Origin: Candidatus Heimdallarchaeum aukensis
GTDB taxonomy: Archaea > Asgardarchaeota > Heimdallarchaeia > Heimdallarchaeales > Heimdallarchaeaceae
Reading direction: 5' to 3'
Length of the DNA: 64,000 nucleotides
Assembly (NCBI GenBank): GCA_021513695.1
Contig: CP084166.1
Coordinates: 2,656,001-2,720,000 of the forward strand
Shown here: in pieces, positions 1-19,800 of the stretch
Numbering within the stretch: position 1 is the first letter of the stretch
Layout of the letters: each line of letters starts with the position of its first letter
The notes under the pieces: model-generated
Told to the model about the DNA's origin: nothing
Database searches by the model: none
The model's input: only the letters and a program-made list of their open reading frames with translations
Position numbers and translations under genes: made by a program

Positions 1-2
1 TG

Positions 3-242
3 ACTGGCTGTCACTTTGGTGATTGTCACTATAAGACTGGTAATTACAAAGCATATAGACGTCTTTCGCTAGTCGCAAAGTTGTTAAAACAAGTTGGGGT
101 AAATCCTAAGAGATTTAGATTGACTTGGATATCAGCTACAGAAGCAGCAAAATTCGTAGAAGTGACTACAGAGATGGTAAATGATCTGAAAAAACTTCCT
201 CCTTACTGGAGAAATGGAAATGGAGGTAATACCAATGAATAA
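3..242 (+). CDS. mvhD: Partial CDS, 3' end only (gene starts upstream of the window). C-terminus of an MvhD-like hydrogenase iron-sulfur subunit (FlpD family).
   Basis: Frame 3 translates to ...TGCHFGDCHYKTGNYKAYRRLSLVAKLLKQVGVNPKRFRLTWISATEAAKFVEVTTEMVNDLKK..., ending at TAA 240-242. This matches the conserved MvhD C-terminal motif (GDCHY..GN, W.SA.E). It sits immediately upstream of the hydrogenase small subunit. Confidence 0.5.
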   Translation, partial: TGCHFGDCHYKTGNYKAYRRLSLVAKLLKQVGVNPKRFRLTWISATEAAKFVEVTTEMVNDLKKLPPYWRNGNGGNTNE

Positions 243-1233
243 ATTAAAGGTTGCAGTGGCTCTTGGCGCAACTTGTGCAGGTTGTGACGTGGCTATCTTA
301 GATTTGAATGAAAAAATACTAGATGTTATAGAGATAGTAGATTTTGTTTTCTGGCCAACAGCTATGGATTTCAAGCTTGAAGATCTAAAGGCATTAAAAG
401 ATGGTGAAGTAGACGTAGGTTTATACCATGGAGCTATAGGTACAGAAGAAGATGAAGAAATAGCAAAAATATTAAGAAAGAAGTCGAAAGTAGTAGTGGC
501 CTTTGGAGCTTGTGCTAATTTTGGTGGGATACCAAGTCTAACAAATATGCCTTATGAATCAAAAATATTCGATGTGGTTTATAAGGAAAGTCCATCTACT
601 TCAAATCCTGAAGGAACTGTACCTCTAAAAGAAACAGAGGTAGAAGGAACAAAGTTGACTTTACCTGGAATTAGAAAAAGAGCAGATTCTTTGAATAGTG
701 TTATCGATGTAGATTATTACGTTCCAGGCTGTCCTCCTATGGTTCCTTTGATAGAACAAGTGGTAGACATTTTGAGAGTTTTTGTTGAAAAAGGAACTTT
801 ACCTCCTAAAGGAGCTGTTATCGCTGGGCAAGATACACTATGTAAGGAATGCGGAAGAACTAAACCAGAAACCATCTCTTACACAGAGTTTCTCTCTCCA
901 CAAGAAGTGAAAGAGATTGACCCTGACCTTTGTCTTCTATCACAAGGAATTTTGTGTTTAGGACCAGCAACACGTTCTGGTTGTGGAGGATTATGCACAA
1001 GCATGAATGTTGGTTGTAGAGGATGTTTAGGACCAACAGATAAAGTTGATGATCATGGTCTAAAAATGATTTCAGCTCTAACATCACTTTTGGACGTAGA
1101 GCATGAAGAAGAGTATACAGAAGAGGAACTAGATAAATTAATAGAAAAAATCCCAGACCCATTAGGAACATTTTATCGATTTACTTATGGAGTCTCCATG
1201 ATCTCTAAATTACATCCTGATATGGAGGAATAA
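214..1233 (+). CDS. mvhG: [NiFe] hydrogenase small subunit, MvhG-like. The true start is probably the ATG at 235 (MNKLKVAVALG...), which overlaps the upstream stop.
   Basis: N-terminal CAGCDVAILDL motif of hydrogenase small subunits. Proximal-cluster GACANFGGIP. C-terminal Cys-rich Fe-S cluster region (CLGPATRSGCGGLCTSMNVGCRGCLGP). Confidence 0.8.
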   Translation: MEMEVIPMNKLKVAVALGATCAGCDVAILDLNEKILDVIEIVDFVFWPTAMDFKLEDLKALKDGEVDVGLYHGAIGTEEDEEIAKILRKKSKVVVAFGACANFGGIPSLTNMPYESKIFDVVYKESPSTSNPEGTVPLKETEVEGTKLTLPGIRKRADSLNSVIDVDYYVPGCPPMVPLIEQVVDILRVFVEKGTLPPKGAVIAGQDTLCKECGRTKPETISYTEFLSPQEVKEIDPDLCLLSQGILCLGPATRSGCGGLCTSMNVGCRGCLGPTDKVDDHGLKMISALTSLLDVEHEEEYTEEELDKLIEKIPDPLGTFYRFTYGVSMISKLHPDMEE

Positions 1234-1235
1234 AA

Positions 1236-2723
1236 ATGAATCAAAAATTAAATCCAAATATCGTGACTATTGAGCCAGTCACAAGATTAGAAGGATTAGC
1301 AAAAATAACAGTACTTCTTAATGATGAAGGAAATGTAAAAGATGCTTTTTATCAAGTAGTAGAACTCAGAGGTTTTGAGCGTTTTGTTCAAGGAAGACCA
1401 ATTGAGGAAGTATTGAGAATCACACCAAGAATATGTGGTGTATGCCCCATACCTCATCATCTTGCACCAGCAAAAGCAGCAGATAGGGTATATGGGGTCG
1501 ACCCTCCTAAAACTGCAAAATTATTAAGAGAAATGCTAGCTTTGGGACATATTGTTCATAGCCATATTTTGCATTTCTATGCTTTTGCTCTTCCTGATTT
1601 TGTACTAGGAGAAAAGAAAGAACCAGGAACGCATAACATAATTGGTATAGCAAAAGCATTTCCTGATGTGGCGAAAGCTGCCATTAAAGCAAGAGGAGAT
1701 GCCCAAAAAATACAAGCAATGATTGGTGCAAAAGCAACTCATCCTGTTACTGTAATTCCAGGAGGAATAAGTAAAGGAGTAACGAAGGAAGATACAGAAA
1801 AGATATTAGAAATGAGCAAGAATATCGTTGAATTCGGTAAACTGGGTCTTAAGGTCTTTGAAGATTTAGTAGTTAAAAATAAAGATCAAATGGATCTTAT
1901 AAACAGTGACGCCTATCAGATGGATACCTATTATATGTCAATTGTAGGCCCCGATAATACGCTCGATTTCTATAATAGTCAAACAGTTAGAGTAATTGAC
2001 AGTAAAGGAAAAGAATTTGCAAAATTTGAAGCAGAAGATTATTTAGACCATTTAGATGAACATGTTGAACCATGGACATATCTCAAGTTCCCCTATTTGA
2101 AAAAGGTAGGTTGGAAGGGACTTGTTGATGGACCGGATAGTGGTATGTATAGAGTAAATGCTTTAGCACGATTGAACGTTATAGATAAGATAACAACACC
2201 TCTCGCCCAAGAAGCAATGGAAATTATGTATGAAGGTCTAGGTGGAAAACCTGCTCATCACACTTTAGGTTTTAACTGGGCTAGGTTAGTGGAAATACTA
2301 TACAGCGGTGAGAGAATGGTTGAACTAGCTGAAGATCCTGACTTTTATGGTACAAAGTTCAGAGAACAGCTAACCAAGGATATGATTACAGGTGAAGGGG
2401 TGGGAGCCATAGAAGCACCAAGAGGAACTTTATATCATCACTATAAGACTGATAAAGAAGGAAAAGTAACCAAAGCTAATATCATAGTAGCAACCACCAA
2501 CAATAATGCTGCGATTTGTTTAAGTGTGAAAAAAGCCGCTCAAGAAATGATTAAAAACGGTCAGTATAATGAGGATGGCTTAAATAAAATAGAGATGGCT
2601 TTTAGAGCTTATGACCCTTGTTTAGCATGTGCTACCCACGCCATGGTTGGACAAATGCCACTGAAAGTAGAAATATATGATTCTAAGAAAAATAAGATTA
2701 GAGAGTTGACACGTAAACTATGA
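1236..2723 (+). CDS. mvhA: [NiFe] hydrogenase large subunit, MvhA-like.
   Basis: N-terminal RLEG and RICGVCPIPHH Ni-binding motif. C-terminal DPCLACATH motif followed by a cleavable tail. A GGAGG Shine-Dalgarno-like motif lies 8 nt upstream. The small subunit stop is 2 nt away. Confidence 0.9.
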   Translation: MNQKLNPNIVTIEPVTRLEGLAKITVLLNDEGNVKDAFYQVVELRGFERFVQGRPIEEVLRITPRICGVCPIPHHLAPAKAADRVYGVDPPKTAKLLREMLALGHIVHSHILHFYAFALPDFVLGEKKEPGTHNIIGIAKAFPDVAKAAIKARGDAQKIQAMIGAKATHPVTVIPGGISKGVTKEDTEKILEMSKNIVEFGKLGLKVFEDLVVKNKDQMDLINSDAYQMDTYYMSIVGPDNTLDFYNSQTVRVIDSKGKEFAKFEAEDYLDHLDEHVEPWTYLKFPYLKKVGWKGLVDGPDSGMYRVNALARLNVIDKITTPLAQEAMEIMYEGLGGKPAHHTLGFNWARLVEILYSGERMVELAEDPDFYGTKFREQLTKDMITGEGVGAIEAPRGTLYHHYKTDKEGKVTKANIIVATTNNNAAICLSVKKAAQEMIKNGQYNEDGLNKIEMAFRAYDPCLACATHAMVGQMPLKVEIYDSKKNKIRELTRKL

Positions 2724-3226
2724 AAATAGCAATTATCGGCCTGGGAAACCCCATTGTTGGGGATGATGCTGTCGGAATAAGAGTCTTAGATTACATAAAA
2801 GAGAATAAGACTCTTCCTTCCTTTGTAGACATAATGGTCGATGTAAGCCTTTCTGGAATAGGTTTAGTTGAACTATTCAGAGGATATGACAAAGTGATAA
2901 TAATTGATTCTATGCAATCTAATCAATTTGAACCAGGTACAGTTCTAAGACTCAACCCTGACCAATTTGTAAGTGCATTACACGTTTCAGATTATCATAA
3001 TATGGACTTTTTTACTGCTTACGAATTCGGTAAAGAGATATATGATGATTTACCACCAAATGAACAAATTGTTATCCTCGGAATTGAGATTAATTATATT
3101 ACTGAATTTAGCGATCAGCTATCTCCAGAAATAAAGTCAAAATTTGATGATATTGTAAATGATGTTTATCAATTTATTAAAAAAGAAATAAATCAAGAGA
3201 AGGAGATTATACGCAATGTCCTTTGA
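2720..3226 (+). CDS. Hydrogenase maturation endopeptidase (HycI/HoxW/FrhD family).
   Basis: MKIAIIGLGNPIVGDDAVGIRV... is the typical N-terminus of hydrogenase maturation proteases. Size is 168 aa. Its start overlaps the large-subunit stop (ATGA). Confidence 0.75.
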   Translation: MKIAIIGLGNPIVGDDAVGIRVLDYIKENKTLPSFVDIMVDVSLSGIGLVELFRGYDKVIIIDSMQSNQFEPGTVLRLNPDQFVSALHVSDYHNMDFFTAYEFGKEIYDDLPPNEQIVILGIEINYITEFSDQLSPEIKSKFDDIVNDVYQFIKKEINQEKEIIRNVL

Positions 3227-3629
3227 ATATATAAAAATAGGAAAAGAAGAAAAAGAATTCATTAGTAAAATAGAAGATATCAGCGGACAGAATCTATATG
3301 CATGTTATCAATGTGGAAAATGTACCGCTGGATGTTCTTTTAGTAATCAGATGGATCTTACAGTAAACCAAGTTATTCATAGATTACAACTTGGGCAAAA
3401 AGAAAAAGTGCTGAGTGCAAAGAGTCCTTGGGTATGTGCGAGTTGTTTGACTTGTACAGTTAGATGCCCACGAGATATTGACGTAGCTGCAATAATGGAG
3501 TCAGTAAGAGAATACATTCTACGTTATGAACCTGAGAGAATAGAAAGAATGAAAGTTACAGGAGAAAAAGCTAAAAACTTGCCTAACATTGCCCTCGTAG
3601 GTAGTTTTAGGAAGAATACTGAATTATAA
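3216..3629 (+). CDS. HdrC-like protein with two 4Fe-4S cluster motifs.
   Basis: Two CxxCxxCxxxC(P) motifs (CYQCGKCTAGCS; CASCLTCTVRCP) in a 137-aa protein. It lies upstream of an HdrB-like gene. Confidence 0.6.
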   Translation: MSFEYIKIGKEEKEFISKIEDISGQNLYACYQCGKCTAGCSFSNQMDLTVNQVIHRLQLGQKEKVLSAKSPWVCASCLTCTVRCPRDIDVAAIMESVREYILRYEPERIERMKVTGEKAKNLPNIALVGSFRKNTEL

Positions 3630-3641
3630 TAGGTGAATTAA

Positions 3642-4532
3642 ATGAAATATTCATATTTTCCAGGATGTAATCTCAAAACAAATGCAAAGGAATATGAACA
3701 TACAGCTGTTGAAGTTTCTAAAATATTAGATGCTGAACTTGTAGAAATGCCAGTGTTTAATTGCTGTGGGACAGTTCATAGTATGGCTTCAGATAATACT
3801 ATGAGGAGAATCGCCCCTGTACGTATTCTTTCAAGATCAGAAGAGCACCAAAAAGAGTTGGAAGATACAAATAACACAGTTGTAACTCTATGTTCCATGT
3901 GTAGTTCAACACTTAAAGTAGTAAATGAAGAAGTAAAAGAAGATGAAGAAATGCTACAGAAAATAAACTGGCAGCTAGAAAGAGATAACTTAAAATATTC
4001 TGGCCATTCGGAAGTCAAACACTATTTAGAAATACTTAGAGATGAAGTTGGTTTTGAAGAAATTGTTAAAAAGGTTAAAAAACAACTTAAAGGAATGAAA
4101 GTTGCTTCTTATTACGGTTGCATGCTGTTACACCCAGATAAAGCTAAAATTGATGACAGCGAAACACCAACAGTGATGGAAACCCTTACCCTTGCACTCG
4201 GAGCAGAAGTAGTTGATTGGCCTTATTTTAAAACTTGTTGCGGTTCTTACCATGTAGTAGACAAAGAAGATATCGTAAACAATCAAATTCTAAAAATAAC
4301 GGAGGGTGCTAAAAAAAGAGGAGCTAATGCTATAATTACTGCTTGTCCTTTATGTGCCTATAATCTTGATAGTCAGCAAGTATTTTTACAGAAAAAAGGA
4401 ATAATAAAAGAAACTATACCTATCTTCTACTTTACTCAACTTATGGCAATAGCTCTAGGAATAAAATTAGAAAATTTTGAAGATCATCATGTAGATCCTA
4501 AACCTTTACTAAAAAGTCTAGGATTAATTTAA
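3642..4532 (+). CDS. HdrB-like protein with two CCG (Cys-rich) domains.
   Basis: Two CCG-domain signatures (FNCCGTVHS...CSMCSS; KTCCGSYH...CPLCAYN), as in heterodisulfide reductase B / SdhE / TfrB C-terminal domains. Confidence 0.7.
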   Translation: MKYSYFPGCNLKTNAKEYEHTAVEVSKILDAELVEMPVFNCCGTVHSMASDNTMRRIAPVRILSRSEEHQKELEDTNNTVVTLCSMCSSTLKVVNEEVKEDEEMLQKINWQLERDNLKYSGHSEVKHYLEILRDEVGFEEIVKKVKKQLKGMKVASYYGCMLLHPDKAKIDDSETPTVMETLTLALGAEVVDWPYFKTCCGSYHVVDKEDIVNNQILKITEGAKKRGANAIITACPLCAYNLDSQQVFLQKKGIIKETIPIFYFTQLMAIALGIKLENFEDHHVDPKPLLKSLGLI

Positions 4533-4549
4533 AAAAAAGAGGAATAAAA

Positions 4550-5272
4550 ATGGCAAAAGCAATATCAATGAGAGAAAAAAAGGAAAAACTTGACACAGTA
4601 ACCATATATATTATGGGTCAAGGATACAAAGTTCCTTCTTCTTTAACCATAATGAAAGCAATGGAATATGCTGGTTTTAAACTTAAAAGAGGAGTCGGTT
4701 GTCGTGCAGGTTTTTGTGGAGCATGTGCAACCGTTTATAGAAAATTAGGTGATTACAAAATATATGCTAACTTAGCATGTCAAACTAAAGTCGAAGATGG
4801 GATGTATCTCACACAATTACCTTTTGTTCCTGCTAATAAAGCAGAATACAATCTTGACGAGATTAAACCTTCAGCTTCAACAATGCTCCGTTTCTATCCA
4901 GAAATAGCAAGATGCTTAAGCTGTAATGCTTGTTCAAGAGTGTGCCCACAAGATATACAAGTAATGGACTATGTTCAATACAGCTTGCAAGGGCAAATAG
5001 AAAAAGCAGCAGAACTAGCTTTTGATTGTATTCAATGCGGTCTTTGCGCAATTCGTTGCCCAGCAGAGATTCCTCAATATCATGTGGCGACATTGGCACG
5101 AAGATTACATGGTAAATATCATATGATTGCTCCTGATACTCTAGAACAAAGAGTAAAGGAAATAGAAGAAGGAAAATACGAAAAAGGATTTGAAGAGTTG
5201 ATGTCTCTATCTGAAGAAGAATTGAAGAAACGATACGTTGCAAGAGACTTTATTGATCAGAAAAAGGCGTGA
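4550..5272 (+). CDS. Fumarate reductase / succinate dehydrogenase iron-sulfur subunit-like protein (FrdB/SdhB/TfrB N-terminal type).
   Basis: 2Fe-2S motif CRAGFCGACA, plus CLSCNACSRVCP and CIQCGLCAIRCP cluster motifs. A GAGG Shine-Dalgarno-like motif lies upstream. Confidence 0.7.
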   Translation: MAKAISMREKKEKLDTVTIYIMGQGYKVPSSLTIMKAMEYAGFKLKRGVGCRAGFCGACATVYRKLGDYKIYANLACQTKVEDGMYLTQLPFVPANKAEYNLDEIKPSASTMLRFYPEIARCLSCNACSRVCPQDIQVMDYVQYSLQGQIEKAAELAFDCIQCGLCAIRCPAEIPQYHVATLARRLHGKYHMIAPDTLEQRVKEIEEGKYEKGFEELMSLSEEELKKRYVARDFIDQKKA

Positions 5273-6936
5273 GAAAAATGATTAGAGGATATCCAGAAAG
5301 TATGAGAAAAAGTATTGACAAAGTCAATAAAACAAGAGATAAGAGAATCGACCAAATTATGAAAGATTTGACTCTTGAAGAACGTGAGAAAGTATTAAAG
5401 GAATTTCACCCTGATTATAATCCAGCATATAAAAGAACTATAAGTTGGGGACAAAATAAAGGCGATTATGTTCCTAATGAAGTCGCAGATATACTGGAAT
5501 CATACCCAATCTATGATCCAGATGAGATAGATTTAAGTCAAATAGATTACGATGTTGGAATATTAATTATTGGTGCAGGAGGAGCTGGAACAGCTGCTGC
5601 TTTATGGTCTGTTTATTCTGGAGTGCCAAATGATAAGATCCTTCTAACAACTAAATTAAGGCTGGGAGACTGTAATACAGTTATGGCACAAGGAGGGATA
5701 CAAGCTGCTGATAGACCAGAAGATTCACCTTTAATTCATTATTTAGATGCTATGGGTGGAGGACACTTCAAAAATAAACCAGAGTTAGTAAAAGCACTTG
5801 TTTCAGATGGTCCCAAAATAATCAAATGGCATAAAGAACTAGGTTTAATGTACGATCAGAATGAAGATGGAAGTTTTGTAGAAAATGCTGGAGGAGGAAC
5901 ATCTAGAAACAGAATGCACTGCGCAAAAGATTATACAGGAATGGAAATTTTCAGAAATCTAAAAGATGAAGTTATTAACAATGAGATACCTTTATTGGAA
6001 TTTTCACCTGCAGTAGAATTGCTAAAAGATGAAAATGGAAGAGTAGCTGGTGCATTGTTATATAATCTAGAAACAAAAGAATATTCCGTCGTAAGAGCAA
6101 AAACAACCATTTTAACAACAGGAGGTTTTGGAAGATTACACATCGCAGGATTTGCAACAACAAATCACTATGGGGCAACAGGAGACGGAATAGTTATGGC
6201 TTATAGAGCAGGAGCTAAACTAAGAGATTTAGACTCAACACAGTTCCACCCAACAGGAGCAGCTTTCCCTGAACAAATAGTAGGTCTGTTAATTACTGAA
6301 AAAGTAAGAAGTTTAGGAGCACAAGTTTTAGGAAAGAATGGAGAACAAATCTGCTATCCACTAGAACCAAGAGATGTAGAGGCTGCTTCAATAATAAGAG
6401 TAACAAAAAGTACAGATAATTATGTTGAAACTCCAACAGGAATGAGAGGAGTCTGGTTAGATAGTCCATTAATTGAAGAAATCAGAGGAAAGGGAACAAT
6501 TGATAAGAATCTTGCTGCAATGAAAAGAATGTTTGCAAGGTTTGATATTGACATGACAGAAGATCCCATACTTGTTCATCCAACCCTTCATTATCAGAAT
6601 GGAGGAGTGGAACTCGATGAAAATGGATATACTTCTGTACCAGGTTTACTAGGCGCAGGTGAAATAAGCGGAGGAGTACATGGAAAGAATCGTCTTATGG
6701 GTAACTCTCTGCTTGAGGTCAATGTTTTCGGTAGACGAGCAGGTATAACTGCTGCTAAAGAATATAAACGAGGTAAAAAACCAGGCAAACTTACTTTATC
6801 ACATGTAAAGAAAACTATTGAGCAATTAGATGCTCTAAACATTAAGAAAAAACGCTTTTCACCTATCATTCTTCCAGAATATCGTAGTGAAGCAGTAAGA
6901 GACAGATTAATTCAACTATTTGAATCTAGTCTCTAA
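5269..6936 (+). CDS. Fumarate reductase / succinate dehydrogenase flavoprotein subunit-like protein (FrdA/SdhA/TfrA family), apparently soluble.
   Basis: Rossmann dinucleotide motif GILIIGAGGAGTAAAL. Catalytic QFHPTG (HPT) motif and a C-terminal capping region. The position of the covalent-FAD histidine is occupied by Cys (RLGDCNTV), suggesting non-covalent FAD. There is an N-terminal extension of about 100 aa. Its start overlaps the previous stop. Confidence 0.8.
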   Translation: MRKMIRGYPESMRKSIDKVNKTRDKRIDQIMKDLTLEEREKVLKEFHPDYNPAYKRTISWGQNKGDYVPNEVADILESYPIYDPDEIDLSQIDYDVGILIIGAGGAGTAAALWSVYSGVPNDKILLTTKLRLGDCNTVMAQGGIQAADRPEDSPLIHYLDAMGGGHFKNKPELVKALVSDGPKIIKWHKELGLMYDQNEDGSFVENAGGGTSRNRMHCAKDYTGMEIFRNLKDEVINNEIPLLEFSPAVELLKDENGRVAGALLYNLETKEYSVVRAKTTILTTGGFGRLHIAGFATTNHYGATGDGIVMAYRAGAKLRDLDSTQFHPTGAAFPEQIVGLLITEKVRSLGAQVLGKNGEQICYPLEPRDVEAASIIRVTKSTDNYVETPTGMRGVWLDSPLIEEIRGKGTIDKNLAAMKRMFARFDIDMTEDPILVHPTLHYQNGGVELDENGYTSVPGLLGAGEISGGVHGKNRLMGNSLLEVNVFGRRAGITAAKEYKRGKKPGKLTLSHVKKTIEQLDALNIKKKRFSPIILPEYRSEAVRDRLIQLFESSL

Positions 6937-7642
6937 AGTCTTTAACGACTATTTTCTTTTTTTCCATCTCTTTTTCTAATAATCTTATTGGAAATATTTT
7001 TCCATGTGAAGGATAAAGCCATTTTACACCTTCATCTATTAGTTTTTTCCAACTTTCGTATATCTTTTCCTTTTTATTTGCGACTATAGGAAAATAGCTT
7101 CTTCCTGAAAGCAAAGGAAACTTCATAACTATGTCTCCTACAAAAGCATGTTTTTGTTTAAAAATTAATGAAATTGAACCATCAGTATGACCTAATGTAT
7201 GAATTATCTTAGCATCAAATCCATATTCTTTTAGGGAAAATTCATCACTTACTTTAATATCAACAGAAAAAGGAGCTATCTCACGCTTTGTAGAAGAAAA
7301 AATCTTCTTAAGCAATTTATTAGTTAAAACTGCTTCTGGTGTATCTCCCTTTTCCACTAATTCAGCCTCTATTTTGTGCATTAAGACTTTTGCTCCTGTA
7401 ATCTCTTTTATCTCTTTTACAGAACCAATATGGTCTATATGTGCATGTGTAATGATAATTAGCTTGATATTTTCTGGTTGAATAGAATTTTTTTGTAAAA
7501 AATGAACTATCTTTTTATGACTTTTTGGCATTCCTGTATCAACTAAAATACAATTATTATTCTCTTTTATTAGAAAACTATTGACATAACCCAATTTTAT
7601 TCTATGGATAGAAACCATACTTACCAAAGAAAGTTCTTGCAT
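6926..7642 (-). CDS. Metallo-beta-lactamase-fold hydrolase.
   Basis: HxHxDH motif (THAHIDHIG) and downstream HTLGHTDGS. The C-terminal 11 nt overlap the convergent frdA-like gene. Confidence 0.7.
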   Translation of the reverse strand: MQELSLVSMVSIHRIKLGYVNSFLIKENNNCILVDTGMPKSHKKIVHFLQKNSIQPENIKLIIITHAHIDHIGSVKEIKEITGAKVLMHKIEAELVEKGDTPEAVLTNKLLKKIFSSTKREIAPFSVDIKVSDEFSLKEYGFDAKIIHTLGHTDGSISLIFKQKHAFVGDIVMKFPLLSGRSYFPIVANKKEKIYESWKKLIDEGVKWLYPSHGKIFPIRLLEKEMEKKKIVVKDFRD

Positions 7643-7924: not shown

Positions 7925-9310
<1,386 letters not shown>

Positions 9311-9394: not shown

Positions 9395-10801
9395 TTAGAT
9401 AAAATCTCCCGTTTCTATTTTCTGTGGGAGGTAGAAGTTTGTAATAAATTGTGGGTCACGTGCATTTAATGCTTGTATTTCTGCTTTATAACCTGTATTT
9501 ATTAGGATTTCAAGTTGTTCTTGCCATTTTGGTTTTCTCTTTACGAACTCTTCTTCAAGCATTAACTTTGATCTTCTTATGTCTTTTTGAGTCATTTTGA
9601 TTAGTGCTTCTCTAGGAATATCAAATCCACTTTCAGGTTTTAGATCACTTGGGAGCAAACCTAACCATTTAATATTTGGCACTGCAAGATGGGTTGATTC
9701 GAAACTAAGAGCTTTACTTCCAACGCTATATACTCTCATGATTTCGAATCCGTAAGGGTCAGCATCCATAATGGCAAGAATAGGTAATTGTAAGTCATCA
9801 TTTATTTTCTTTAGAAACTGTCTTGTTGCCATGTCAGGTTGACCTTTAGCTGTAACTAAAATGCTTGGTACATAATCGTAAAAATGGTCTTCTGCTAACC
9901 TGTTAAAAATAGCATCTTTTTCAATAACTAAACAAAATTCAGCATCACTTTCTAAATCTTCGATGTCATCTATATTTGGTGAAATAGCTTTTCCTGAACC
10001 GATAGCTCTACAATCTATAAGATCACCCTTTTCCTTGAATTGTAACTTTCCTACAACAATACCTTTAGACGATGCACTAACATTTAGTGAAGTCCTCGTA
10101 GCTTGTATCATTGCTCCTAAATCTTCAATAAGAGAGTCTGATACTGCTTGTTTCTTAAACGCATTCACATTCATGTAGAAAATATCTCTTTTTGTACTGT
10201 GAATATCACGTGATAGTATGTCATGAAGAAGTCTCATTAATATTGACATTTGTTCAATCGTGCTTACAGAGGATAAACTCCTAAATTGGCGTTCTATCAT
10301 TTGTCTACCAATAAGTACTAATTCTTGTTCTTCATCAAAACCAATATTTCTCTTTCCTCTTGAAGGAATTTTAAAACTAGCTTCATCAGGTTTGTTAAGT
10401 GCTTCATTCAAAAATAATAATGCTGCTTCAACAATTTTATTTTTAGCTTTTTCCGAAGACATTGTTTCTACATTAGTTACACCATAAGGTAACTCATAAT
10501 CCTGCAATAAAGTAAGTTCGTTTCTAAGTTTCCTTATTTTATCAACTGGAACTTTTCTTTTTATTTCAATTCTCATTAATTCTTTCTTAAGAGGATAATT
10601 ACCTAAGGTTTTACCTTTCTCTAGAGGATACCACTTCTTTCCGCTTCTCAAAAAGAGTACAAAAGATCCTTTTTTAAGTTCAAATTCTTCTTGTAATATT
10701 TGAAATAATTCATTTATCTGAATACTGTTATCAAAACTCATTTTTACTTCAGTTGAAGGCAATATTGTTGCATTTTTTACTAAAAAATTATAGTTTACCA
10801 T
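9395..10801 (-). CDS. top6A: DNA topoisomerase VI subunit A (Spo11 homologue) with an N-terminal extension of roughly 80-90 aa.
   Basis: CAP/winged-helix region with the catalytic tyrosine motif TKRDIFYMN. Toprim domain: LVIEKDAIFNRL...VTAKGQPDMATRQFLKKI...ILAIMDADPYGFEIM. The gene lies 10 nt downstream of the top6B stop (canonical top6B-top6A operon). Confidence 0.85.
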   Translation of the reverse strand: MVNYNFLVKNATILPSTEVKMSFDNSIQINELFQILQEEFELKKGSFVLFLRSGKKWYPLEKGKTLGNYPLKKELMRIEIKRKVPVDKIRKLRNELTLLQDYELPYGVTNVETMSSEKAKNKIVEAALLFLNEALNKPDEASFKIPSRGKRNIGFDEEQELVLIGRQMIERQFRSLSSVSTIEQMSILMRLLHDILSRDIHSTKRDIFYMNVNAFKKQAVSDSLIEDLGAMIQATRTSLNVSASSKGIVVGKLQFKEKGDLIDCRAIGSGKAISPNIDDIEDLESDAEFCLVIEKDAIFNRLAEDHFYDYVPSILVTAKGQPDMATRQFLKKINDDLQLPILAIMDADPYGFEIMRVYSVGSKALSFESTHLAVPNIKWLGLLPSDLKPESGFDIPREALIKMTQKDIRRSKLMLEEEFVKRKPKWQEQLEILINTGYKAEIQALNARDPQFITNFYLPQKIETGDFI

Positions 10802-10810
10802 TTTTCCACC

Positions 10811-13800
10811 TCATTTTGTACTCCTTTTTTTGGTTTCAATTTTTGTATCAGCTGAAATTTCATCTAAAGTTGTTTGTTTTGTTCGCTTTGAAGTTGTTGT
10901 TTTCTTTGTTGTTGTACTTGGTCTCTTTGTTTTAGTAGTCGTTGTTTTCTTTGTTGTTGTACTTGGTCTCTTTGTTTTAGTAGTCGTTGTTTTCTTTGTT
11001 GTTGTACTTGGTCTCTTTGCTTTGGTAGTCGTTGTTTTTACAAAAGGAATTGTCTGTTTGATCTTCTTTATATCATTATAAGTCATCTCTAGCTTTCCTT
11101 CAAGCTGAGATGTCGGATAAGCAATAAATTCTCCAATTGTATTAATTCCAAGTGAGTTCAACTTATTTCGTATTTGCTGTTTAACATCTAATTTTTCTAT
11201 TGGCTCTTCTATTAACTTTAGTAATTTTTGAACATTTTTGTTTTTGAAAATATCTTTTCTCTTCGTACGATTATCAGCAAATATCAACTCTTCAAACGAA
11301 GATATCCCTATTTCTTTTAATTTTGATATAATCTCACTGCTCATAAATGGTGTACTTTTCACTATTTGCGTTTTACCCTTCTTTGCAATTTTTAGAGATT
11401 GAGGAGTTAAAGTTGCAAAATAGTTTCTTAACTGCCTTTCTGTTATATTAGTAATTTCAGTCAGTTCGTTAATTTTTGTATTAAAAACATCCCAGAGAGA
11501 ATACTTCTGTTTATGGTATAATTTAAAGATACTGTTTGGTTTATCCTGCATTAGTGCATAGAATGAGTAAATTGGGTATGAAAGAAGTTCTTTTAATGTG
11601 GATATCTGTCTGATTGATAACTCTGTTTGTTCTTTAATTCTCTTATCAGAAACTGATAAATGTATAATGTGGGAATACCCACCGTTTTCCAATATGGATT
11701 TTTCAGTATCTGAAAATAGACCTAAATCTTTAATCCTATAGCTATTTAGTTCTAATTGCTCTTTCACTTTAGTCATGTTAAGAGAGTTAAGAAGTTCAGT
11801 AAATTCTGCACGTTGTTTTTCTGTAAATTTAATCTGTAAATCATCTATATTTTGTAGGAAGAAAAGATCATAAACTTGTTCATAACCTCTTTTTGCTAGT
11901 TGAAAAAGTATATTCTTTTGACGTATAAATAATGCTAATGATGCTCTAAAACAAGAAAGAACATCTTTTACTTTCATGGATAAGTCGCTGATATTTTTCT
12001 CTTCAAACAAAGCAATTAGTTCACCTAATGAATTTATATCATTTTCATTTAGCTCGTTAATTATTTCTTTATCGTTTACAAAATCTATAAGTTTAGAATT
12101 GCTTTGAGATGCTAATGAATCTAGATCATGGAACGGAATTTGAGATAAAAGGTTTTTAAGGACAGTTATGTTTGAAGATTTATTTAATAATAGTAAATCA
12201 TAAACTGTTTTTGTATTACTTTTTAGTAGAAGCCTAAATGTTTCCTTACTCTCAAAGACAAGTGGAAGAGAGTAAATTTTTTGTTCAATTCTTAAACGGA
12301 GTTTTTCCGTGATCTTCCATCTCTTTGAAGTTTTTGATTTTGATACAATATTAAACACGTAAGCCTCTTCTATAGAGAAAATGTGACCTTGACTTAAAAC
12401 ATCTAATTCAGTTTTATCCAAAATTGTTTCAGGAATGGGGGTTAACTTAGATGCTAGAGTACGTAATGTTTCTAGTGATAGATTTCGAATCTGACGTATT
12501 AGTCTATTATCGTCGATTATCTGACTTAACTGGTATCTAGGTTTTAAAATTAAATCTCCTATTGTTAAGTTGCCATATTGTTTGAATTTCTCTTTATTTT
12601 CAAAACTTTCATTGACTAGCAAAATAACATGCCTATTTAGAAATTGTAAGTATTCATTAAAGTGTAAAGTTATGGTCTCTGGGAAAGAACTTGTAATTTT
12701 GTCAAATTGCTTTTTATCATATTTCTCCAAGAGAAGTAAGGATTCAAGGGTATATTGGACTTTTAGTTCATCTTTTTCAGGAAGATTCAACTTTTCTTCG
12801 AATTTGGTTGGTTTTGAGAAAATAAATGAGTAAATATCAAGTAGTCTCTTGGATACTTGAGAATTTACTTTTAGAGAATCATGATGTATATTGAAGAAAA
12901 CTAATTGTTGAAAACTTAAGTCTGGGAGTTTTTCGTCAAAATATCGCGAAGAGAGTTTTTGTAAAAGTCCAATTTTTGTTCTTAATGAAGGTGAAAGGTT
13001 AGAAACAACATCAGTGTTTTCAAAGAGATCAAGATAATTCTTAATACCATTTTCTCTCAATTCAGCAATATCAAAATCTTGTAGAACAATGTTTGTTTTT
13101 AGAGCAGGGGGGTTGCTTATTCTAGAAATAGTAATCTTACTAAGAAAAGTGTCAACTTCACTAATGTTTGTGCTTATAATTTTTGCAAGAGCTGGCTTAG
13201 ATAACAAAAGCATTTCTTGTAGAGTACTTACTTTGGATAAAAGTTTTAACCAATTTTCGAGAGGAAGTTGTGGGAAAGAAATCAGATAAATAGATTTGTT
13301 TAATATCTTTTGAACATTATTTCGTAATTTACTTCTCAATTTACAGTGTTTTTTTGATAAATCATAAACCAAATCGTCAATAACTGTATAATATTTCAGT
13401 AATTTTTTCTTTGTTTCACTATCAAACAGCATAATATTGGAAAGTTGAACTCTTTTATCTCTCAATTTTTTAATTGTTTTAACATTCAAAGTTGAGAGAA
13501 CATGATTAACTTTCTCAAGTTGTTTTTCTGATAAGAATGAAGAATATGAAATAGGTTTAATTAGTAAATCCTTTAGTGTTTCGATTTTATGTTCATTCAG
13601 TTTTTCTACTTCTTTTTCAGTGAAATCTGTTATTATAGAGACAGAACTGTTAAGGAGGTTTAGAATCTCTAATCCTGTTTTAGTAAGAAACTCTTTGTTC
13701 ATGTATAAAACAGAAATAAAATCAATGATATTTGAGATCTCTGGAATTTCAATGTTTTTGCTGAATAAGTTTTTTGAATTAATAGTACCAAGAAAATCTT

Positions 13801-16800
13801 TTGTCTTTAACGTAAGAGATAATGTTTTCTTTTTATCTTTAATCAGATTACTAATTATGGTGTTATAATCACCAAAGCTGACTAGTTGATCGTTTTTAAC
13901 AAGATCTCTGATGGTGAAAAGATTGTTGTCAAAGTATTTTGTTTCAATCTCTTCAAATTTTAAGGAGTTAATAGAGCTTAAGAATAGGATTGATGTATCT
14001 AAAATTTGTTTTATTTTTGTTCTTATTTTTTCTATCTTTTTAATATCATAAAGCCAGTTGTATATTGAATTCTCTTCTAAATCTGAAAAACTATAGAATC
14101 CATAAGATAACAAAGTAGATTTTTCTTTTTCACTAAGAAATGGTAAATCTACAAAATGATTTGGCTTATCTTTTTCAATTGTTTTCTTGATTTTATCAAT
14201 CTTTATTGATGAGCGTAGTTTCAATATTTGATCAAGTTTAATCCTTGATTCTTTTGCGACTGTTTTATACGGAATAAGCAGTAGATCTGCGATAGTGTAT
14301 GTTCCACCTTTTTTAAGGTTAGTTTCTATTTTCTCTTCTAGTCCTAAATATCGAATATTGGCTAGTAAATATGGGCTAATTTCTGCAAATATGCTCTTAT
14401 CTTTTAGATTAACATCTCCAAGTAATTCTTGATAAGATAAGTACCCAAGTTTCATTGCTTTTTCTTCATATGAACCTAAAGGAGGAATAAAACTTTCAAG
14501 ATGTAGATTTTTTAACATTGATAGACTTGATAAAATTTCATCAACCATTGCATCATCTAGATTTTGGATAGAGGAAATAACATCTATAATGTAAACTAAC
14601 TTCTTGTTATAACAAGATTTTATTGTATCTAATGTCAATATAGGTAGATTGTTTATGTTTCTACTTAATTTCATTCTAATATCTTTAATTTCTTCAATGT
14701 ATGAATCTGGTAGGCTTAAGAAAAACTCTTCAGGGAAGTAATATAGATATTCAATTGAGAAAACTCCCAAACTGTATAGCTTTTGAACTAATGACTTATT
14801 TAACTTTAAGTTTGCAATATCAAGAGTAGAGAATTGAAGGGAAGATAGATTCCTAATGAAAAGAGAATTGTTCTCTTTTATGGCTTTATCCAATTTTGGG
14901 AGAAGGGTTTCCCACAGGTGAATAGGAATATGAAGGTAGTCATAATATGTTTTTTTATTTTTTAAAGATTCATTAATATTTTTTGTTGAAATCCCGAGTA
15001 TACGCTCAATTGTCTTTATTGGTGTAAAGAGAATAGGTATATTCACTATCAACTTTTCTTTTTCATCTTTGTTTATTTCTAATTGATCTACATCATGATA
15101 AAATAGTTGAATTAAAGAGTAAATCTCATTTTCATTAAGATATTCGATTGTAGAAACCTCGGGTTTTTTGATTGTTTTTGGACTAGTACCTTCTTTAGCT
15201 TCACGTTTTTTAATAAGTGGAAGTTTACCCTCTTTTGTTAGTTCTTTTTCAGTTAAGGATGGTAAAAGGTTTAAGTCGATTCCATAGAGTTTAAGTTCAG
15301 AAACAATATTTCTTTTACTAATCTGTAATTTAATAGTGTTTATCTCTTTATACTCTATTTCAAATAATTTACCCAAAGAAACTGATGGAATAGATAAAAA
15401 TTCAAGTATAGTGTTAATCTTATTTTCAAAGAGAATAGAGTTTTGTTGCAATGAAAGTGAACTTAAGAAGGAAATTGGAGTTGTTCCAAACAATGAGAGA
15501 GTCTTTTTTATTGATGATAAATTCTTATCTTCTGAACTGTAATCCTGTAAACAAAGAAGTTGATCTAAATACTCAATATTAATCTTTTTTAGATATAGCT
15601 TCTGTTGTTTGGACAAAAATTTTACATCACGTAACTTAATTGCCCATTTAGGTATTTGAAAATCAGATAAAGAACTTACTACATATTCTGCTAGTTCTAT
15701 GTCAATATTGTCTGGAGGAAGAAGTAATAAATCAAGAATAAGTTTTTTATCTTCCTTCATCAAATTTCTCAAAAACTCAAGCTGATCTATTTGAGAAAAT
15801 TTATCTAACCAAATAATTGGATATTTTACCATACTTGTAAGAGAATTAGAATTACTAAAGAGAATTTGAGAACTTATGACAAATGGTTGAGGAAGCAGAT
15901 CTAGTAGATTAATAACATCGGGAGAGGTCTTAATGTCTAGTTTATCACTTTTATTTGATAGAATGTCCAGATGATCTTTGGGAATTAAGTTAACTAATTT
16001 TTCTTTAGAAAATTCTTTTACAAAACGGATAATCTCACTTCTAGCATTTGATGGAATAGTTCTCTTTTCTTCAGAGCTAAGAGTAAGAAGTTCAATAATA
16101 TTTTTAACTCCATTTTTCCATAAATCAAGTTTGACGTCTAAACTCATGTCTGAGATAGAAAAAATATTTAGACATAAACCATAGATTAGTTCTTCAAGTT
16201 TAGCAATACTACTCGCTTTTTCTATTTTTTCACTTTCTGAGAATATAAGCAAGTATTCTGGTACCAACCCAAAGATATCTTCAAATGATGCTTTTGAAAG
16301 GTTGAATTTAAAGTCTGTGAGTGTACTTATTAATTCTTTATCTTCTTCAAGAATAGGTATGCCTGAACTAAGGCTTATGTTTCCCTTTCTTTTATCTTTT
16401 AACTCTTCAGGAATGGAATTGAATATCTTCTTAAGATCTTTTTCTCTAACTATAAAGAGGTCAATAACTCGTAGAATGCGGTTTTTTGCAAGACTACGTT
16501 TAATAAAGCGTGAAAGGTTTGAAATTCTGAAGACTGAAGAGTTACAAAGAGAGAGAAAATTATCAATATTTTCCTTAAATTCTTCAGAAAATGATTTTAT
16601 TTGATAACAAAGACCATAAAGATCTTGAACTGTGTCCTTATTCAGTTTTTGTAAGCTAAGAAGATTTCTCTTTGACAATAACGCAAGAGATTCAAGTTTT
16701 ATTCCTTTTTCTTCAACTTCATTTAGTATTTTTTTAACTGAAATATTTTCTTTTATTTTGATAATTTCAGTTTCAGGTATGTCTAAAATTAATGATATCG

Positions 16801-19800
16801 TAGTGATGTCTTCTGTTAAGAAGGTGAGTATATCCCCGACGCCAGAATAAACAAGTTTTAACATTTGTTCTAACTCTAAATCCAAGAAGAATACAGATGA
16901 GAGATACAACTTTGCTTCTTTAAATACATTCATGTTCACTAGATATGGGTATGATTTTCTGATTTCAGACATTCTAGAAATGAAGTCTTGAATTGAATAA
17001 ATCCCTAATTCATGTAATTTTTCTACATATTCACTTGTTATTGATGGACAATTTTCTAGAGGAATTGCAAAACGAAGTCTTTTCTCTTTTAATTCATCTA
17101 AAGATAACAAGTCAAATATATGAAATTCATCATAAATAGGATTGTTTAGAATTTGTGATAATTGTCCTTTTTCAAAAAGAGACAAATCGATTACTGAGTG
17201 AATATCCTGTAATTCTAGTTTCTTTATTTCTTCAAAAGACAAGAAACTAAGAAAAGTTATTGAACCTGATAATATTTCTTTAAATTCTCTATATTTCTCT
17301 TGCTTTAAGATACTGGATGCACCCATTCTTACTCCAGCATAGTACAAAGTTTCTATGTCTGATATTCCTATATCTCGTAATTTAGAAATTTCAGTTTCCG
17401 TGATGAGAGAAGAAGGCATAATAGGGTGAGATCTTGCTTTGTGTAATTCAACAATTTCACTATAAGATAGATTTTCCTTTATTTCATTAATCCTTTTTTG
17501 TGTTTCATTAGATATTTCAGAAAGTTTTTTGGTTGGTGTTGAATAAAAGTCTATTAATGTTGTAATTGAAGATCTGCTAAGAGGAAGAGCAAGATTAACG
17601 TCCAAGTTTAGTGAAGAAATAGGAATAGACAAATCACCTATAAGTTTATCTAAACTATTTTCTTCACCTAGTTTGTTTTTAATTTCCAAGAGAGGAGAGT
17701 TCTCCTCGAATTCAAGTTCAAATAAGCTCCCTAAAGTAATTATAAAGTATTTATTCCTCATATCTTCACTTAAAAGATTGAGAAAAGGTGTAATTCCAAG
17801 TGGTAATTCAAAAACTGAACGAATAAGTGTAATGTTACATTTTTCAAAAGCTAATTGTCTTTCAAATTCGCTGAGGGTTTTTATCAAATCTGTGCTGGAA
17901 ATAACATCAAGTAATGTTAACTCTTCAATATCTTCCAGAATAGTAGAAAAGAAGTCTTTATTGTAAGCAGTTGCAGAAAGAAAATCAAAGTAGTGATAAG
18001 CTCTCAAGTCAATTAATTTAGAAGAATAGTCTGAAACAGTTCTAAATAGCGTTCTATCCGTTAAATCGCTATCTAATATGAATATTAAATGGTAAAGGTG
18101 GGTTATTTGGTTTTGATTAAAAATAGTCAAAGAATAATCTGAAATCTCCTGAAAAATCCGTAAAGGAAGTGATAATATTTTCTTTAATGTGAAAACTTTT
18201 CTCCAGATTGATGAGTTTCTGTCGATGAAAACTTCATCGGGACAGTAGAAAAGTTCTTGAATTGATTGAAATCCTTCATAACTGTAAATTGTTTCTCTAC
18301 TTAGCGTTCTTTGTTCATTTTTGTCAAAAAGTCTAGTTTCATATGCATAGATTGCTCGCGCCTCATATTCTTCTCTTATTCTCTGTGATGTTAAAATGTC
18401 AATTATTTCCTTTGTTTCTTTTGTTGTAATGTTTAGGATATTACTGAGTTTAACAGATGAAGTAGAAACGAAATCAACTATAGTTAATATACCCGCTTTT
18501 CTCAATTCTTCAGTTTGTGAAAAAGAGATATTTGGTAAGAAATAAACAGGGAGACTGAAAAAGTAAAAAATTTCACCAAGATCTAGACTTCTCTTAATAT
18601 TATCAAAACGTTCGTCGGGAATCCCTGTTCTTTCCATTAGAACTTTAGATGACGTAAGTAGAAAACCTAACAATGTATTTATTTTGTTTTTCTTTAAGAG
18701 CTTAATTATATCTGGATCTAACATGTCTGACAAGTGCTTAAATCGTAAATTTAGCACATTTTTTAAATTCTGAACTATCTCCCATGGAATTGTTCTTATT
18801 GCCCATTTTTCTTGCTGAGTAGAAAAGTATAGGTCCTCAATGGTAAAGATGTTGTTAGTTTCTAAAATTTCTACTATCGATGGTCTAAAGATATCAAGTT
18901 CAGAAATATCTGTTCCAGTTTCACTAATCCTGATATTTTTCTTGTATTTTTTAGCTTCTTCTAAATCAATTTTTAAAATAGAAGCGATTGTTTCATCACT
19001 AACAAGGAAAAAGTCAATGATTCTTCTGATTCCAGTTTTTCTTAGAGCATTCAGCTGTTCATGGGATAAGCTTGTTATTTCAATTTCTTCAATTTCTTCC
19101 TCTTGTTTTGTTTCTTCATTTAATATCTTCTTCTTTGTGGTTTTTTCCCAAGTAACTAGCGTCAGGGGAGAACGCAATAGTTTCTTGAATTTTTCAATTA
19201 CACCCCATTTTATTATGGGAGCACCAAAAGTGTAAGGGTGTGTTAAATAAAATAGCTGGTCTATAGAATTGTAACCAATAACAAGTAAAGAACGGATTTC
19301 TTCAGGTGAAAAACGTTCTGAATTTTCAAAATCAAAGGAGATTATTGATTCATACTTACCACTAGATACTTTCTCGTAGAATGGTTGTCCATCTCTATTT
19401 ACATCAAAATTGTTTATTAACTCATCAAAATTCTTCTTTGAAAAATTAAGTATCGTGCTTAATTCATCAAAACTGTAATTTAAAAATTGGTGCAGAGAGT
19501 AAATCTTTTTTGAAGCTAATACTTCATAATCTTTAAGTTTCAAGCTTTTTATACGAGTGATTGGTAATTGCAAAAACTGATAGAAATCAATTATTTCGTG
19601 AGATAACAAAACTTTTTCTGCAAACTCATCAGTATCTTTAAGATTTTTACTATTTATATTGTCGTAGAGTTCAAGTAAAATTTTTTTGTCTTTATTTTTT
19701 GAAATTTCTGTCTCAATAAATACAGGTGTAAGTTGAAGGAAATCTCTTATTGTATTTACATCCTTGGTTTTGAGCTTAAGAAGAGCATCATTCAATGACT

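Follow-up and report, generated by a model that had tools for sequence, protein, structure and literature searches.

INTRODUCTION

In known complexes of heterodisulfide reductase (Hdr) with [NiFe]-hydrogenase, HdrABC-MvhADG, the HdrA subunit is the electron-bifurcating flavoprotein as well as the docking site of MvhD, and such complexes are commonly encoded by archaea and bacteria unable to synthesize coenzymes M (CoM) and B (CoB). The disulfide substrate of the complex has repeatedly been called unknown in organisms that do not make these two coenzymes (e.g. PMC9723716). Here we analyze a stretch of 64,000 nucleotides from the Asgard archaeon Candidatus Heimdallarchaeum aukensis (contig CP084166.1, positions 2,656,001 to 2,720,000 of the forward strand; the whole stretch is called the window below), which begins within an operon where hydrogenase, Hdr and two fumarate-reductase-like subunits are encoded one behind the other. 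With moderate confidence, we propose from its gene content that this operon encodes a cytoplasmic, H2-driven, flavin-based electron-bifurcating fumarate and ferredoxin reductase complex.

Among the closest described systems are bacterial gene clusters in which fumarate reductase and Hdr genes occur together. The transcriptionally co-regulated ‘succinate operon’ of Pseudoclostridium thermosuccinogenes holds genes for fumarase, Flx-Hdr and a fumarate reductase that was described as novel and possibly engaged in bifurcation (PMC7282089), while in tubeworm symbionts and in Thioflavicoccus korABCD-tfrAB genes are interspersed with flxABCD-hdrABC (PMC6315080), an idea that a survey of 2026 took up again, adding evidence of co-expression (PMC13147460). 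Ca. Celaenobacter carries a Mvh-Hdr-TFR-OGOR-fumarase-SCS cluster (PMC8542988). As judged from the descriptions of their gene content, these clusters follow the same logic as the locus studied here, with fumarate reductase genes next to hdrABC, an input module (Flx or Mvh) and a 2-oxoglutarate:ferredoxin oxidoreductase, and they have the same proposed function, namely bifurcation to fumarate and ferredoxin; they are bacterial and were proposed from genomes without biochemistry. PMC13147460 also summarizes a five-subunit NADH:fumarate reductase of Hydrogenobacter thermophilus that serves a reductive tricarboxylic acid (TCA) branch (Miura et al. 2008); it resembles the present system in being soluble and made of several subunits, and differs from it in having dispersed genes and NADH as donor. 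In Asgard archaea, thiol:fumarate reductase (Tfr) and Hdr-Mvh have been treated as separate enzymes joined by free CoM/CoB, with H2 evolution assumed (PMC9723677).

With regards to single subunits, HdrABC-MvhADG of hydrogenotrophic methanogens (e.g. Methanothermococcus; PDB 5ODC, 8RVU, 9SFI) has the same subunit set and the same order, HdrA, MvhD, MvhG, MvhA, HdrC, HdrB, as found here. TfrAB of Methanothermobacter, which is also soluble, reduces fumarate by means of an FrdA-like flavoprotein joined with an FrdB-like iron–sulfur (FeS) module and CCG (HdrB-type) domains. The type-E (non-classical) succinate:quinone reductase SdhABEF and the methylmenaquinol:fumarate reductase (MFR, SdhABE) of Campylobacterota similarly have a flavoprotein, an FeS subunit with a full second CxxCxxCxxxCP motif and a CCG-domain partner. 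Among all of these, the locus of Ca. H. aukensis is a new Asgard member of the kind of cluster already proposed in bacteria.

RESULTS

Layout of a 12-gene operon

The window opens partway into a 12-gene operon, oforA-oforB-oforG-hdrA-mvhD-mvhG-mvhA-protease-hdrC-hdrB-frdB*-frdA*, of which it contains the 3' two-thirds; here frdB* (FrdB-like) and frdA* (flavoprotein) are the names we use for the two appended genes. The initial annotation of the window, made from its letters only, had listed eight tightly packed genes on the plus strand, and all eight open reading frames (ORFs) were found at the expected positions with Pfam and NCBIfam domains as predicted:

1–242, plus strand: 3' part of mvhD, for the [2Fe-2S] MvhD/FlpD subunit (frame-3 translation; NCBIfam VhuD and HdrA2 C-terminus)
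214–1233, plus strand: mvhG, [NiFe]-hydrogenase small subunit, 339 aa (PF01058; top NCBIfam match VhuG, 179 bits); the start in the database gene call is 220
1236–2723, plus strand: mvhA, [NiFe]-hydrogenase large subunit (PF00374; top NCBIfam match VhuA, 400 bits)
2720–3226, plus strand: hydrogenase maturation endopeptidase (PF01750; TIGR00072, 95 bits, exceeding its cut-off)
3216–3629, plus strand: hdrC, 137 aa, two CxxCxxCxxxCP motifs (NCBIfam HdrC/QmoC; alignment with HdrC in the PDB)
3642–4532, plus strand: hdrB, 296 aa, two CCG domains (PF02754 twice; alignment with methanogen HdrB structures)
4550–5272, plus strand: frdB*, FrdB-like protein, 240 aa, [2Fe-2S] and 2x[4Fe-4S] (Pfam Fer2 and Fer4; NCBIfam TfrB N-terminus, 43.6 bits)
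5269–6936, plus strand: frdA*, soluble fumarate-reductase-type flavoprotein, 555 aa (GTG at 5269) or 552 aa (ATG at 5278) (PF00890)
6957–6963, plus strand: T7 run, candidate archaeal operon terminator suggested by oligo-T inspection

The claim that hydrogenase and fumarate-reductase-like genes share one tight cluster was also borne out, the gene junctions within the window being overlaps of 4–29 nt or gaps of 2–17 nt, mostly with Shine–Dalgarno-like sites (GGAGG/GGAGA/AGGTGA/GAGGA-type, upstream of mvhA, hdrC, hdrB and frdB). A bacterial promoter/terminator scan gave counts like those of shuffled sequences and, since its model is bacterial and the host archaeal, was uninformative, so that oligo-T inspection was used. 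In the junctions of the window no oligo-T was found between operon genes up to the flavoprotein stop, and the T7 run, located 21 nt past that stop, is the first inter-gene oligo-T on the plus strand.

The region upstream of the window could be viewed on a contig having an identical flavoprotein (L001), which reaches 4.7 kb beyond the window start. Co-oriented with the genes of the window, this region holds the alpha, beta and gamma genes of a 2-oxoacid:ferredoxin oxidoreductase, followed by hdrA and then the complete mvhD (154 aa), which starts right behind hdrA. HdrA has 653 aa and matches the NCBIfam HdrA2 core with 819 bits. The alpha subunit of the oxidoreductase is of the Kor/Oor type (572 bits, over the NCBIfam cut-off), the top NCBIfam match of the beta subunit is 2-oxoglutarate:ferredoxin oxidoreductase beta, and the PorA model gave only 100 bits. 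The initial annotation had named an hdrA beside mvhD, combined with a terminator before the sdh-like genes, as an arrangement that would speak against a hydrogenase–fumarate reductase module; hdrA is indeed there, and the terminator was not seen. No gene for a membrane anchor was found among the operon ORFs, whether in the window or upstream on L001.

The hydrogenase has the features of Group 3c [NiFe]-hydrogenases (MvhADG type). MvhA carries the nickel–iron ligand motifs RICGVCPIPH (N-terminal RxCGxCxxxH type) and DPCLACATH (C-terminal DPCxxCxxH type) together with a C-terminal extension for proteolytic maturation, and the small subunit and MvhD are encoded beside hdrA. The NCBIfam scores stayed below the cut-offs for methanogen equivalogs (VhuA 400/800, VhuG 179/450, VhuD 120/215 bits), and by these scores we class the subunits as homologues, not equivalogs, of methanogen VhuA, VhuG and VhuD.

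Two observations were made next to the operon. A convergent gene for a metallo-beta-lactamase-fold protein (6926–7642, minus strand) overlaps the flavoprotein stop by 11 nt, and such a gene is also found downstream in other Asgard loci (L004, L006, L010, L013). A glutamate dehydrogenase gene (7949–9310, plus strand) lies 1 kb downstream of the operon.

HdrC, HdrB and the FrdB-like protein

The HdrB-like protein, with its two CCG motifs, can be aligned over its entire length with methanogen HdrB chains of known structure in the PDB, and the 10 Cys residues that serve as ligands of the two noncubane [4Fe-4S] clusters are invariant in 60/60 homologues from the loci described below. The HdrC-like protein aligns with residues 10–102 of HdrC in the PDB, spanning both [4Fe-4S] cluster motifs, while being ≈47 residues shorter; all eight cluster Cys are conserved in 53–54 of 54 homologues. 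Both score below the NCBIfam equivalog cut-offs (HdrB 148/345 and HdrC 66/160 bits), and the top NCBIfam match of the HdrB-like protein is SdhE of MFR, at 151.7 bits against a cut-off of 500. Because hdrA is located just upstream in the cluster and HdrB aligns end to end, we assign the two proteins from these comparisons to a complete HdrABC-MvhADG set, in which they are HdrC and HdrB. The genes added to that set are only two, those for the FrdB-like protein and the flavoprotein. The initial annotation had read the last four genes as a Tfr split into four ORFs behind the hydrogenase, a view that could not be upheld with hdrA upstream, HdrB at full length and two genes appended.

The FrdB-like protein has the Cys pattern C-x4-C-x2-C-x17-C (C51, C56, C59, C77) followed by two CxxCxxCxxxCP motifs, and these 12 cluster Cys are conserved in 70–71 of 71 homologues. 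A sequence search of the PDB returned only generic 2x[4Fe-4S] ferredoxin domains for this protein, with no close solved relative of its [2Fe-2S] part. Pfam gave no CCG domain, because of which the FrdB-like protein by itself, unlike TfrB, is not predicted to supply a thiol-oxidizing site.

The flavoprotein family

The closest relatives of the flavoprotein are 57–80% identical and occur in both archaea (Asgard, Thermoplasmatota, Theionarchaea, Methanofastidiosum, Bathyarchaeia and Thermoproteota, among others) and bacteria (Bipolaricaulota, WOR-3, Aerophobetes, Aminicenantes, Thermotogae, Chloroflexota and Spirochaetota, among others). A count by the family motifs F[PA]TTNHYG and HGKNRLMG came to at least 594 species genomes. 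Among 50%-identity representatives the family forms one cluster (61%), the next relatives, which also have an N-terminal extension, are at 39–45%, and TfrA-, SdhA- and NadB-like proteins are at 33–40%. The extension of the family, 95 residues long, is kept across phyla and is modeled with high confidence in an AlphaFold2 (AF2) model of the flavoprotein (pLDDT 83, pTM 0.86), the nearest structures of which are Escherichia coli FrdA and Mycobacterium smegmatis SdhA, with NadB ranking around 50th. Only PF00890 was found by Pfam, the C-terminal Sdh domain PF02910 not being detected, and the alignment with SdhA stops near SdhA residue 465.

A full fumarate/succinate catalytic set is present, in agreement with the claim that the protein is of fumarate reductase type. 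Across 52 family members, H327, T343, E344, R347, R368, H441 and R475 do not vary; they align with representatives of Sdh, Tfr and NadB and match FrdA H232, T244, E245, R248, R287, H355 and R390, respectively. The position of the covalent-FAD His of SdhA/FrdA had been assigned to the Cys of RLGDCNTV; it is instead the neighboring Asn136, invariant in the family, that aligns there, and position 135 is C, A or S. The conclusion drawn from it nevertheless holds, as with Asn136 at this position a histidyl-FAD (8-alpha-N3) link is excluded as judged from the alignment. Compared with complex II (SdhA/FrdA), the protein hence has the catalytic set and lacks the covalent-FAD His, the C-terminal domain and the anchors.

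The top named NCBIfam match is TfrA (NF004900), at 309 bits (cut-off 718) over profile positions 7–425 of 546, followed by NadB (TIGR00551), at 261 bits (cut-off 452.75). A neighbor-joining (NJ) tree was built from a trimmed MAFFT alignment with 100 bootstraps, the clades being named from ≈20 NCBIfam-classified representatives; it suffices to exclude NadB, deeper branching being beyond its resolution. Bootstrap support was 100 for the family, 97 for the family together with its short N-extended sisters and 99 for the NadB clade, the sampled members of which pass the cut-off. The placement with L-aspartate oxidase that the initial annotation had named as speaking against its reading was consequently not found. 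By scores and tree, the flavoproteins appear as a large and well-delimited clade, distinct from NadB, TfrA and SdhA and at present annotated just as ‘FAD-binding protein’. In the literature searched, we found no description of the breadth of this clade or of the Asgard case.

Conservation of the linkage across genomes

Homologues of nine operon proteins were mapped in 80 loci from other species, and the neighboring ORFs were clustered and named by NCBIfam/Pfam. The FrdB-like gene adjoins the flavoprotein gene in 75 of the 75 loci where this is visible, and HdrB is encoded immediately upstream of it in 40 of 69. When only loci with at least 8 kb upstream were considered (below, well-covered loci), Hdr genes were found in 47 of 52 (HdrA in 46, HdrB in 45, MvhD in 42, MvhA in 22). 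The order HdrC-HdrB-FrdB-Flav is kept in Asgard, Thermoplasmatota, Methanofastidiosum, Bathyarchaeia, Thermotogae, Chloroflexota, WOR-3 and Bipolaricaulota with varying input modules, and the 12-gene order is repeated with hardly any change in L008, a Promethearchaeota genome, as well as in L036 and L044, which are from Thermoplasmatota. In several Heimdallarchaeota (L003–L007, L011) and several bacteria, HdrA-HdrC-HdrB-FrdB-Flav is kept and MvhGA is replaced by MvhD plus an FeS protein and sulfhydrogenase-beta/gamma-like NAD(P)H-binding subunits, a composition which we take to be that of FlxABCD.

Recurrent neighbors were the alpha/beta/gamma/delta subunits of the oxidoreductase (≈35 loci), class-I fumarase alpha/beta (12/10), SucCD (11/8) and malic enzyme (11), with phosphoenolpyruvate carboxykinase (PEPCK) found once. 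These neighbors support, by association, fumarate/succinate as the substrate of the flavoprotein. From the counts and recurrent neighbors over the 80 loci, the constant core is Hdr together with the FrdB-like and flavoprotein subunits; the module for electron input can be exchanged, and the metabolic context is the branch from C4-dicarboxylates to 2-oxoglutarate. Fumarate reductase genes together with hdrABC, an input module and oxidoreductase or TCA genes are found in the operon of the window and in 47 of the 52 other well-covered loci. The arrangement is therefore widespread and not peculiar to this genome, as has been remarked on in bacteria (PMC8542988, PMC6315080, PMC7282089). No named P. 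thermosuccinogenes protein was among the best 120 matches of a homologue search seeded with a Eubacteriales member.

Two further gene arrangements were seen in this collection. In three loci of Heimdallarchaeota or Thorarchaeota (L010, L012, L013) a second hdrA stands between mvhA and the protease gene, in the order HdrA-MvhD-MvhG-MvhA-HdrA'-protease-HdrC-HdrB-FrdB-Flav; the cluster in the organism of the window holds a single hdrA. Among the NAD(P)H-type variants, a family of ≈343–362-aa FeS proteins with two CxxCxxCxxxCP motifs, generic Fer4 matches in Pfam and none in NCBIfam is encoded behind mvhD (L003–L007, L011, L016, L019, L025, L031, L037, L049, L081), and this protein may be an FlxB/C-like subunit.

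Differences from described enzymes

Compared with HdrABC-MvhADG of methanogens, the operon has the FrdB-like and flavoprotein genes after hdrB, its HdrC is shorter as given above, and every NCBIfam score falls short of the cut-off for methanogen equivalogs. Within the window there was no sign of a methanogen cofactor context, which makes CoM-S-S-CoB an unlikely acceptor here.

In TfrB the FeS and CCG parts are fused, whereas here the FeS subunit lacks CCG and the sole CCG protein of the operon is a genuine HdrB. TfrA differs from the present flavoprotein by having an additional ≈120 C-terminal residues, lacking the conserved 95-aa N-terminal extension and belonging to a separate clade. Neither a full-length TfrA (NF004900, 309/718) nor the TfrB fusion (NF004898, 43.6/385) was thus found, and TfrAB membership was rejected on scores and architecture. 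Membership in type-E Sdh/MFR was rejected on the same two grounds. In contrast to those enzymes, there is no quinone or membrane context here, HdrA, HdrC and a hydrogenase are encoded as well, neither the covalent-FAD His nor the C-terminal domain is found in the flavoprotein, and the SdhE score was 151.7 against 500. L-Aspartate oxidase (NadB), finally, was rejected as identity of the flavoprotein by score cut-off, tree, structural matches and gene context.

Other features of the window

An ORF of 4184 aa (10811–23365, minus strand) lies directly downstream of a Topo VI-A/Spo11-like gene (9395–10801, minus strand). Its N-terminus reads like the GHKL ATPase of Topo VI-B, the other ≈3500 residues are repetitive and rich in Lys, Ile and Leu, and the C-terminus has three ‘TTKKTTTTKTKRPS’ repeats; such a size would be extraordinary for Topo VI-B. 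A 379-aa protein (30959–32098, plus strand) gave a weak match to the Tubulin/FtsZ GTPase domain (31.3 bits against the Pfam cut-off of 33) and may be a divergent member of the tubulin superfamily. It is followed by a 990-aa fusion (32153–35125, plus strand) of a GlcD/D-lactate-dehydrogenase-type FAD oxidase (PF01565 and PF02913) and an HdrD/GlpC-like part that consists of a 4Fe-4S dicluster and two CCG domains, which makes it a second CCG-domain redox enzyme in the window. Genes for aldehyde:ferredoxin oxidoreductase (37807–39651, minus strand) and pyruvate kinase (28008–29420, minus strand) were also found. Taken together with the 2-oxoacid oxidoreductase and glutamate dehydrogenase, these two enzymes suggest a ferredoxin-centered fermentative metabolism.

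DISCUSSION

The initial annotation had suggested a cytoplasmic H2-dependent fumarate reductase. The linking of H2 oxidation to fumarate reduction stands in our analysis; HdrA, ferredoxin and the oxidoreductase had been missed, and with these included the arrangement points away from a plain H2:fumarate reductase and toward a flavin-based bifurcating enzyme that would also reduce ferredoxin. In the proposed complex, H2 would be oxidized at MvhAG and the electrons passed via MvhD to the FAD of HdrA, where they would be split. The low-potential electron would go to ferredoxin and the high-potential electron from HdrC (2x[4Fe-4S]) to HdrB (two noncubane clusters), to the FrdB-like subunit (2x[4Fe-4S] and [2Fe-2S]) and on to the non-covalent FAD of the flavoprotein, where fumarate would be reduced to succinate. 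Fumarate would in other words stand in the place that the heterodisulfide has in the bifurcating enzyme, with the net reaction 2 H2 + fumarate + Fd(ox) -> succinate + Fd(red, 2e-) + 2 H+. Once reduced, ferredoxin (Fd) could feed the co-transcribed Kor-like oxidoreductase, converting succinyl-CoA and CO2 to 2-oxoglutarate, which could then yield glutamate through the enzyme encoded by the downstream glutamate dehydrogenase gene; it could feed membrane energy conservation as well.

Observed here are the gene content and order, the cofactor and catalytic residues, the family placement and the cross-phylum linkage. The textbook potentials are −414 mV for H2, +33 mV for fumarate/succinate and about −500 mV for ferredoxin. 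Calculated with these, the net reaction has ≈−70 kJ in the forward direction and is still exergonic at 10 Pa H2, which makes H2 uptake the only plausible direction and H2 evolution implausible. The 1:1 output of succinate and reduced ferredoxin also fits the demand of succinyl-CoA carboxylation. It is from such evidence that we infer the formation of a physical complex, bifurcation and its direction; HdrB may act as a wire or may still turn over a thiol/disulfide.

Several points weigh against this proposal. In about 10% of the well-covered loci (5/52), no Hdr gene lies within 10 kb of the FrdB-Flav pair, which shows that the two genes can occur without Hdr nearby and that their products may have a different donor, for example ferredoxin. 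In those loci, where the neighbors include an M42 peptidase, a helix–turn–helix regulator, PEPCK, a GlcD-like oxidase and a tetratricopeptide repeat protein, no dedicated alternative redox partner recurs. The joining of HdrB/HdrC with the FrdB-like subunit in a complex is one that we infer from gene adjacency alone, and neither biochemical or structural evidence for any member nor enzymology of fumarate-dependent ferredoxin reduction was found in the literature searched. All ligands of the disulfide-reducing noncubane clusters are retained in HdrB, and there may accordingly be a thiol/disulfide intermediate. The catalytic residues of the flavoprotein are common to L-aspartate oxidase, the substrate not being proven by residues alone. 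Finally, Asgard Mvh-Hdr complexes have been interpreted as H2-evolving (PMC9723677).

The main rival is that the gene products are co-transcribed yet separate, with a conventional HdrABC-MvhADG complex that reduces ferredoxin and some small or protein disulfide and a free-standing, two-subunit fumarate reductase FrdB*/FrdA* that takes its electrons from reduced ferredoxin or another carrier, in which case the coupling would be metabolic and not physical. Although we consider it rather improbable, this explanation is kept alive by the Hdr-less loci just mentioned, and it would agree with HdrB not being the immediate upstream neighbor in 29 of 69 loci, with the likeness of FrdB* to a 2x[4Fe-4S] domain of the polyferredoxin type, to which ferredoxin could dock, and with the disulfide-site ligands all being retained in HdrB. 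It is countered by the order HdrC-HdrB-FrdB-Flav, which is kept over many phyla despite changing input modules, and by the neighborhoods of the 80 loci, among which no candidate gene for a disulfide carrier recurs. Uncoupled electron transfer from ferredoxin (about −500 mV) to fumarate (+33 mV) would moreover waste the energy invested by the Hdr complex.

A non-bifurcating cytoplasmic H2:fumarate oxidoreductase, in which HdrC, HdrB, FrdB* and FrdA* form a four-piece Tfr fed by MvhADG, seems to us quite unlikely. The gene adjacency in the window would suit such an enzyme, as would the top NCBIfam matches of the flavoprotein (TfrA) and FrdB* (TfrB N-terminus), but those matches are far below their cut-offs (TfrA 309 against 718, at positions 7–425 of 546; TfrB 43.6 against 385). 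Tfr contains no HdrC, the HdrB found here is homologous to HdrB over its full length, and hdrA is located immediately upstream, HdrA being present in 46 of the 52 well-covered loci.

We give about as little credit to the reverse reaction, a confurcating, H2-evolving succinate dehydrogenase that would convert succinate and reduced ferredoxin to fumarate and 2 H2 and serve amino-acid fermentation or syntrophy in this Asgard archaeon. That Asgard Mvh-Hdr has been proposed as H2-evolving (PMC9723677) would favor it, as would the thermophilic succinate-to-H2 idea raised for Culexarchaeia (PMC9723716) and the flanking glutamate dehydrogenase and Kor-like oxidoreductase, which could run oxidatively from glutamate to succinate. 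The mean donor potential calculated from the textbook values is however only ≈−235 mV, compared with −414 mV for H+/H2 (≈−300 mV at 10 Pa H2), making the reaction endergonic at any realistic H2 pressure, and the NAD(P)H-type variants would be even less capable of running backwards.

That the flavoprotein could be an L-aspartate oxidase or dehydrogenase (NadB-like), or act on another substrate, with FrdB*/Hdr as electron acceptor, is highly improbable, because the second-ranking NadB score (261 bits), the catalytic residues common to NadB and the Asn at the His position seen also in NadB-like sequences are outweighed by that same score being under the NadB cut-off (452.75), the separation of family and sisters (97/100) from the verified NadB clade (99/100), the best structural matches being FrdA and SdhA with NadB around 50th, the obligate FeS partner, and neighbors that are fumarase, SucCD, oxidoreductase, malic enzyme and PEPCK instead of nadA/nadC.

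Returning to the bifurcating fumarate and ferredoxin reductase, we can also formulate a wider and more tentative proposal, covering this Asgard archaeon and hundreds of other non-methanogenic anaerobes. It is possible, if doubtful, that the high-potential acceptor of HdrABC in non-methanogens is fumarate and no disulfide. The noncubane clusters of HdrB would then be a pure wire leading into fumarate reductases of a dedicated clade, with N-terminal extension and non-covalent FAD, all within a Mvh(or Flx)-Hdr-Frd supercomplex whose succinate and reduced ferredoxin, formed 1:1, would directly prime 2-oxoglutarate synthesis. If the proposal is true, a hard-wired fumarate reductase would be a concrete and testable answer to the question of the disulfide substrate for a large share of the organisms having HdrABC-MvhADG but not making CoM and CoB, and fumarate would become one of the few acceptors by which flavin-based bifurcation is driven. 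The Mvh-Hdr of this Asgard archaeon would then consume H2, or recycle it internally, to yield succinate and reduced ferredoxin, and not H2, and such H2 consumption would bear on the syntrophy models used in scenarios of eukaryogenesis.

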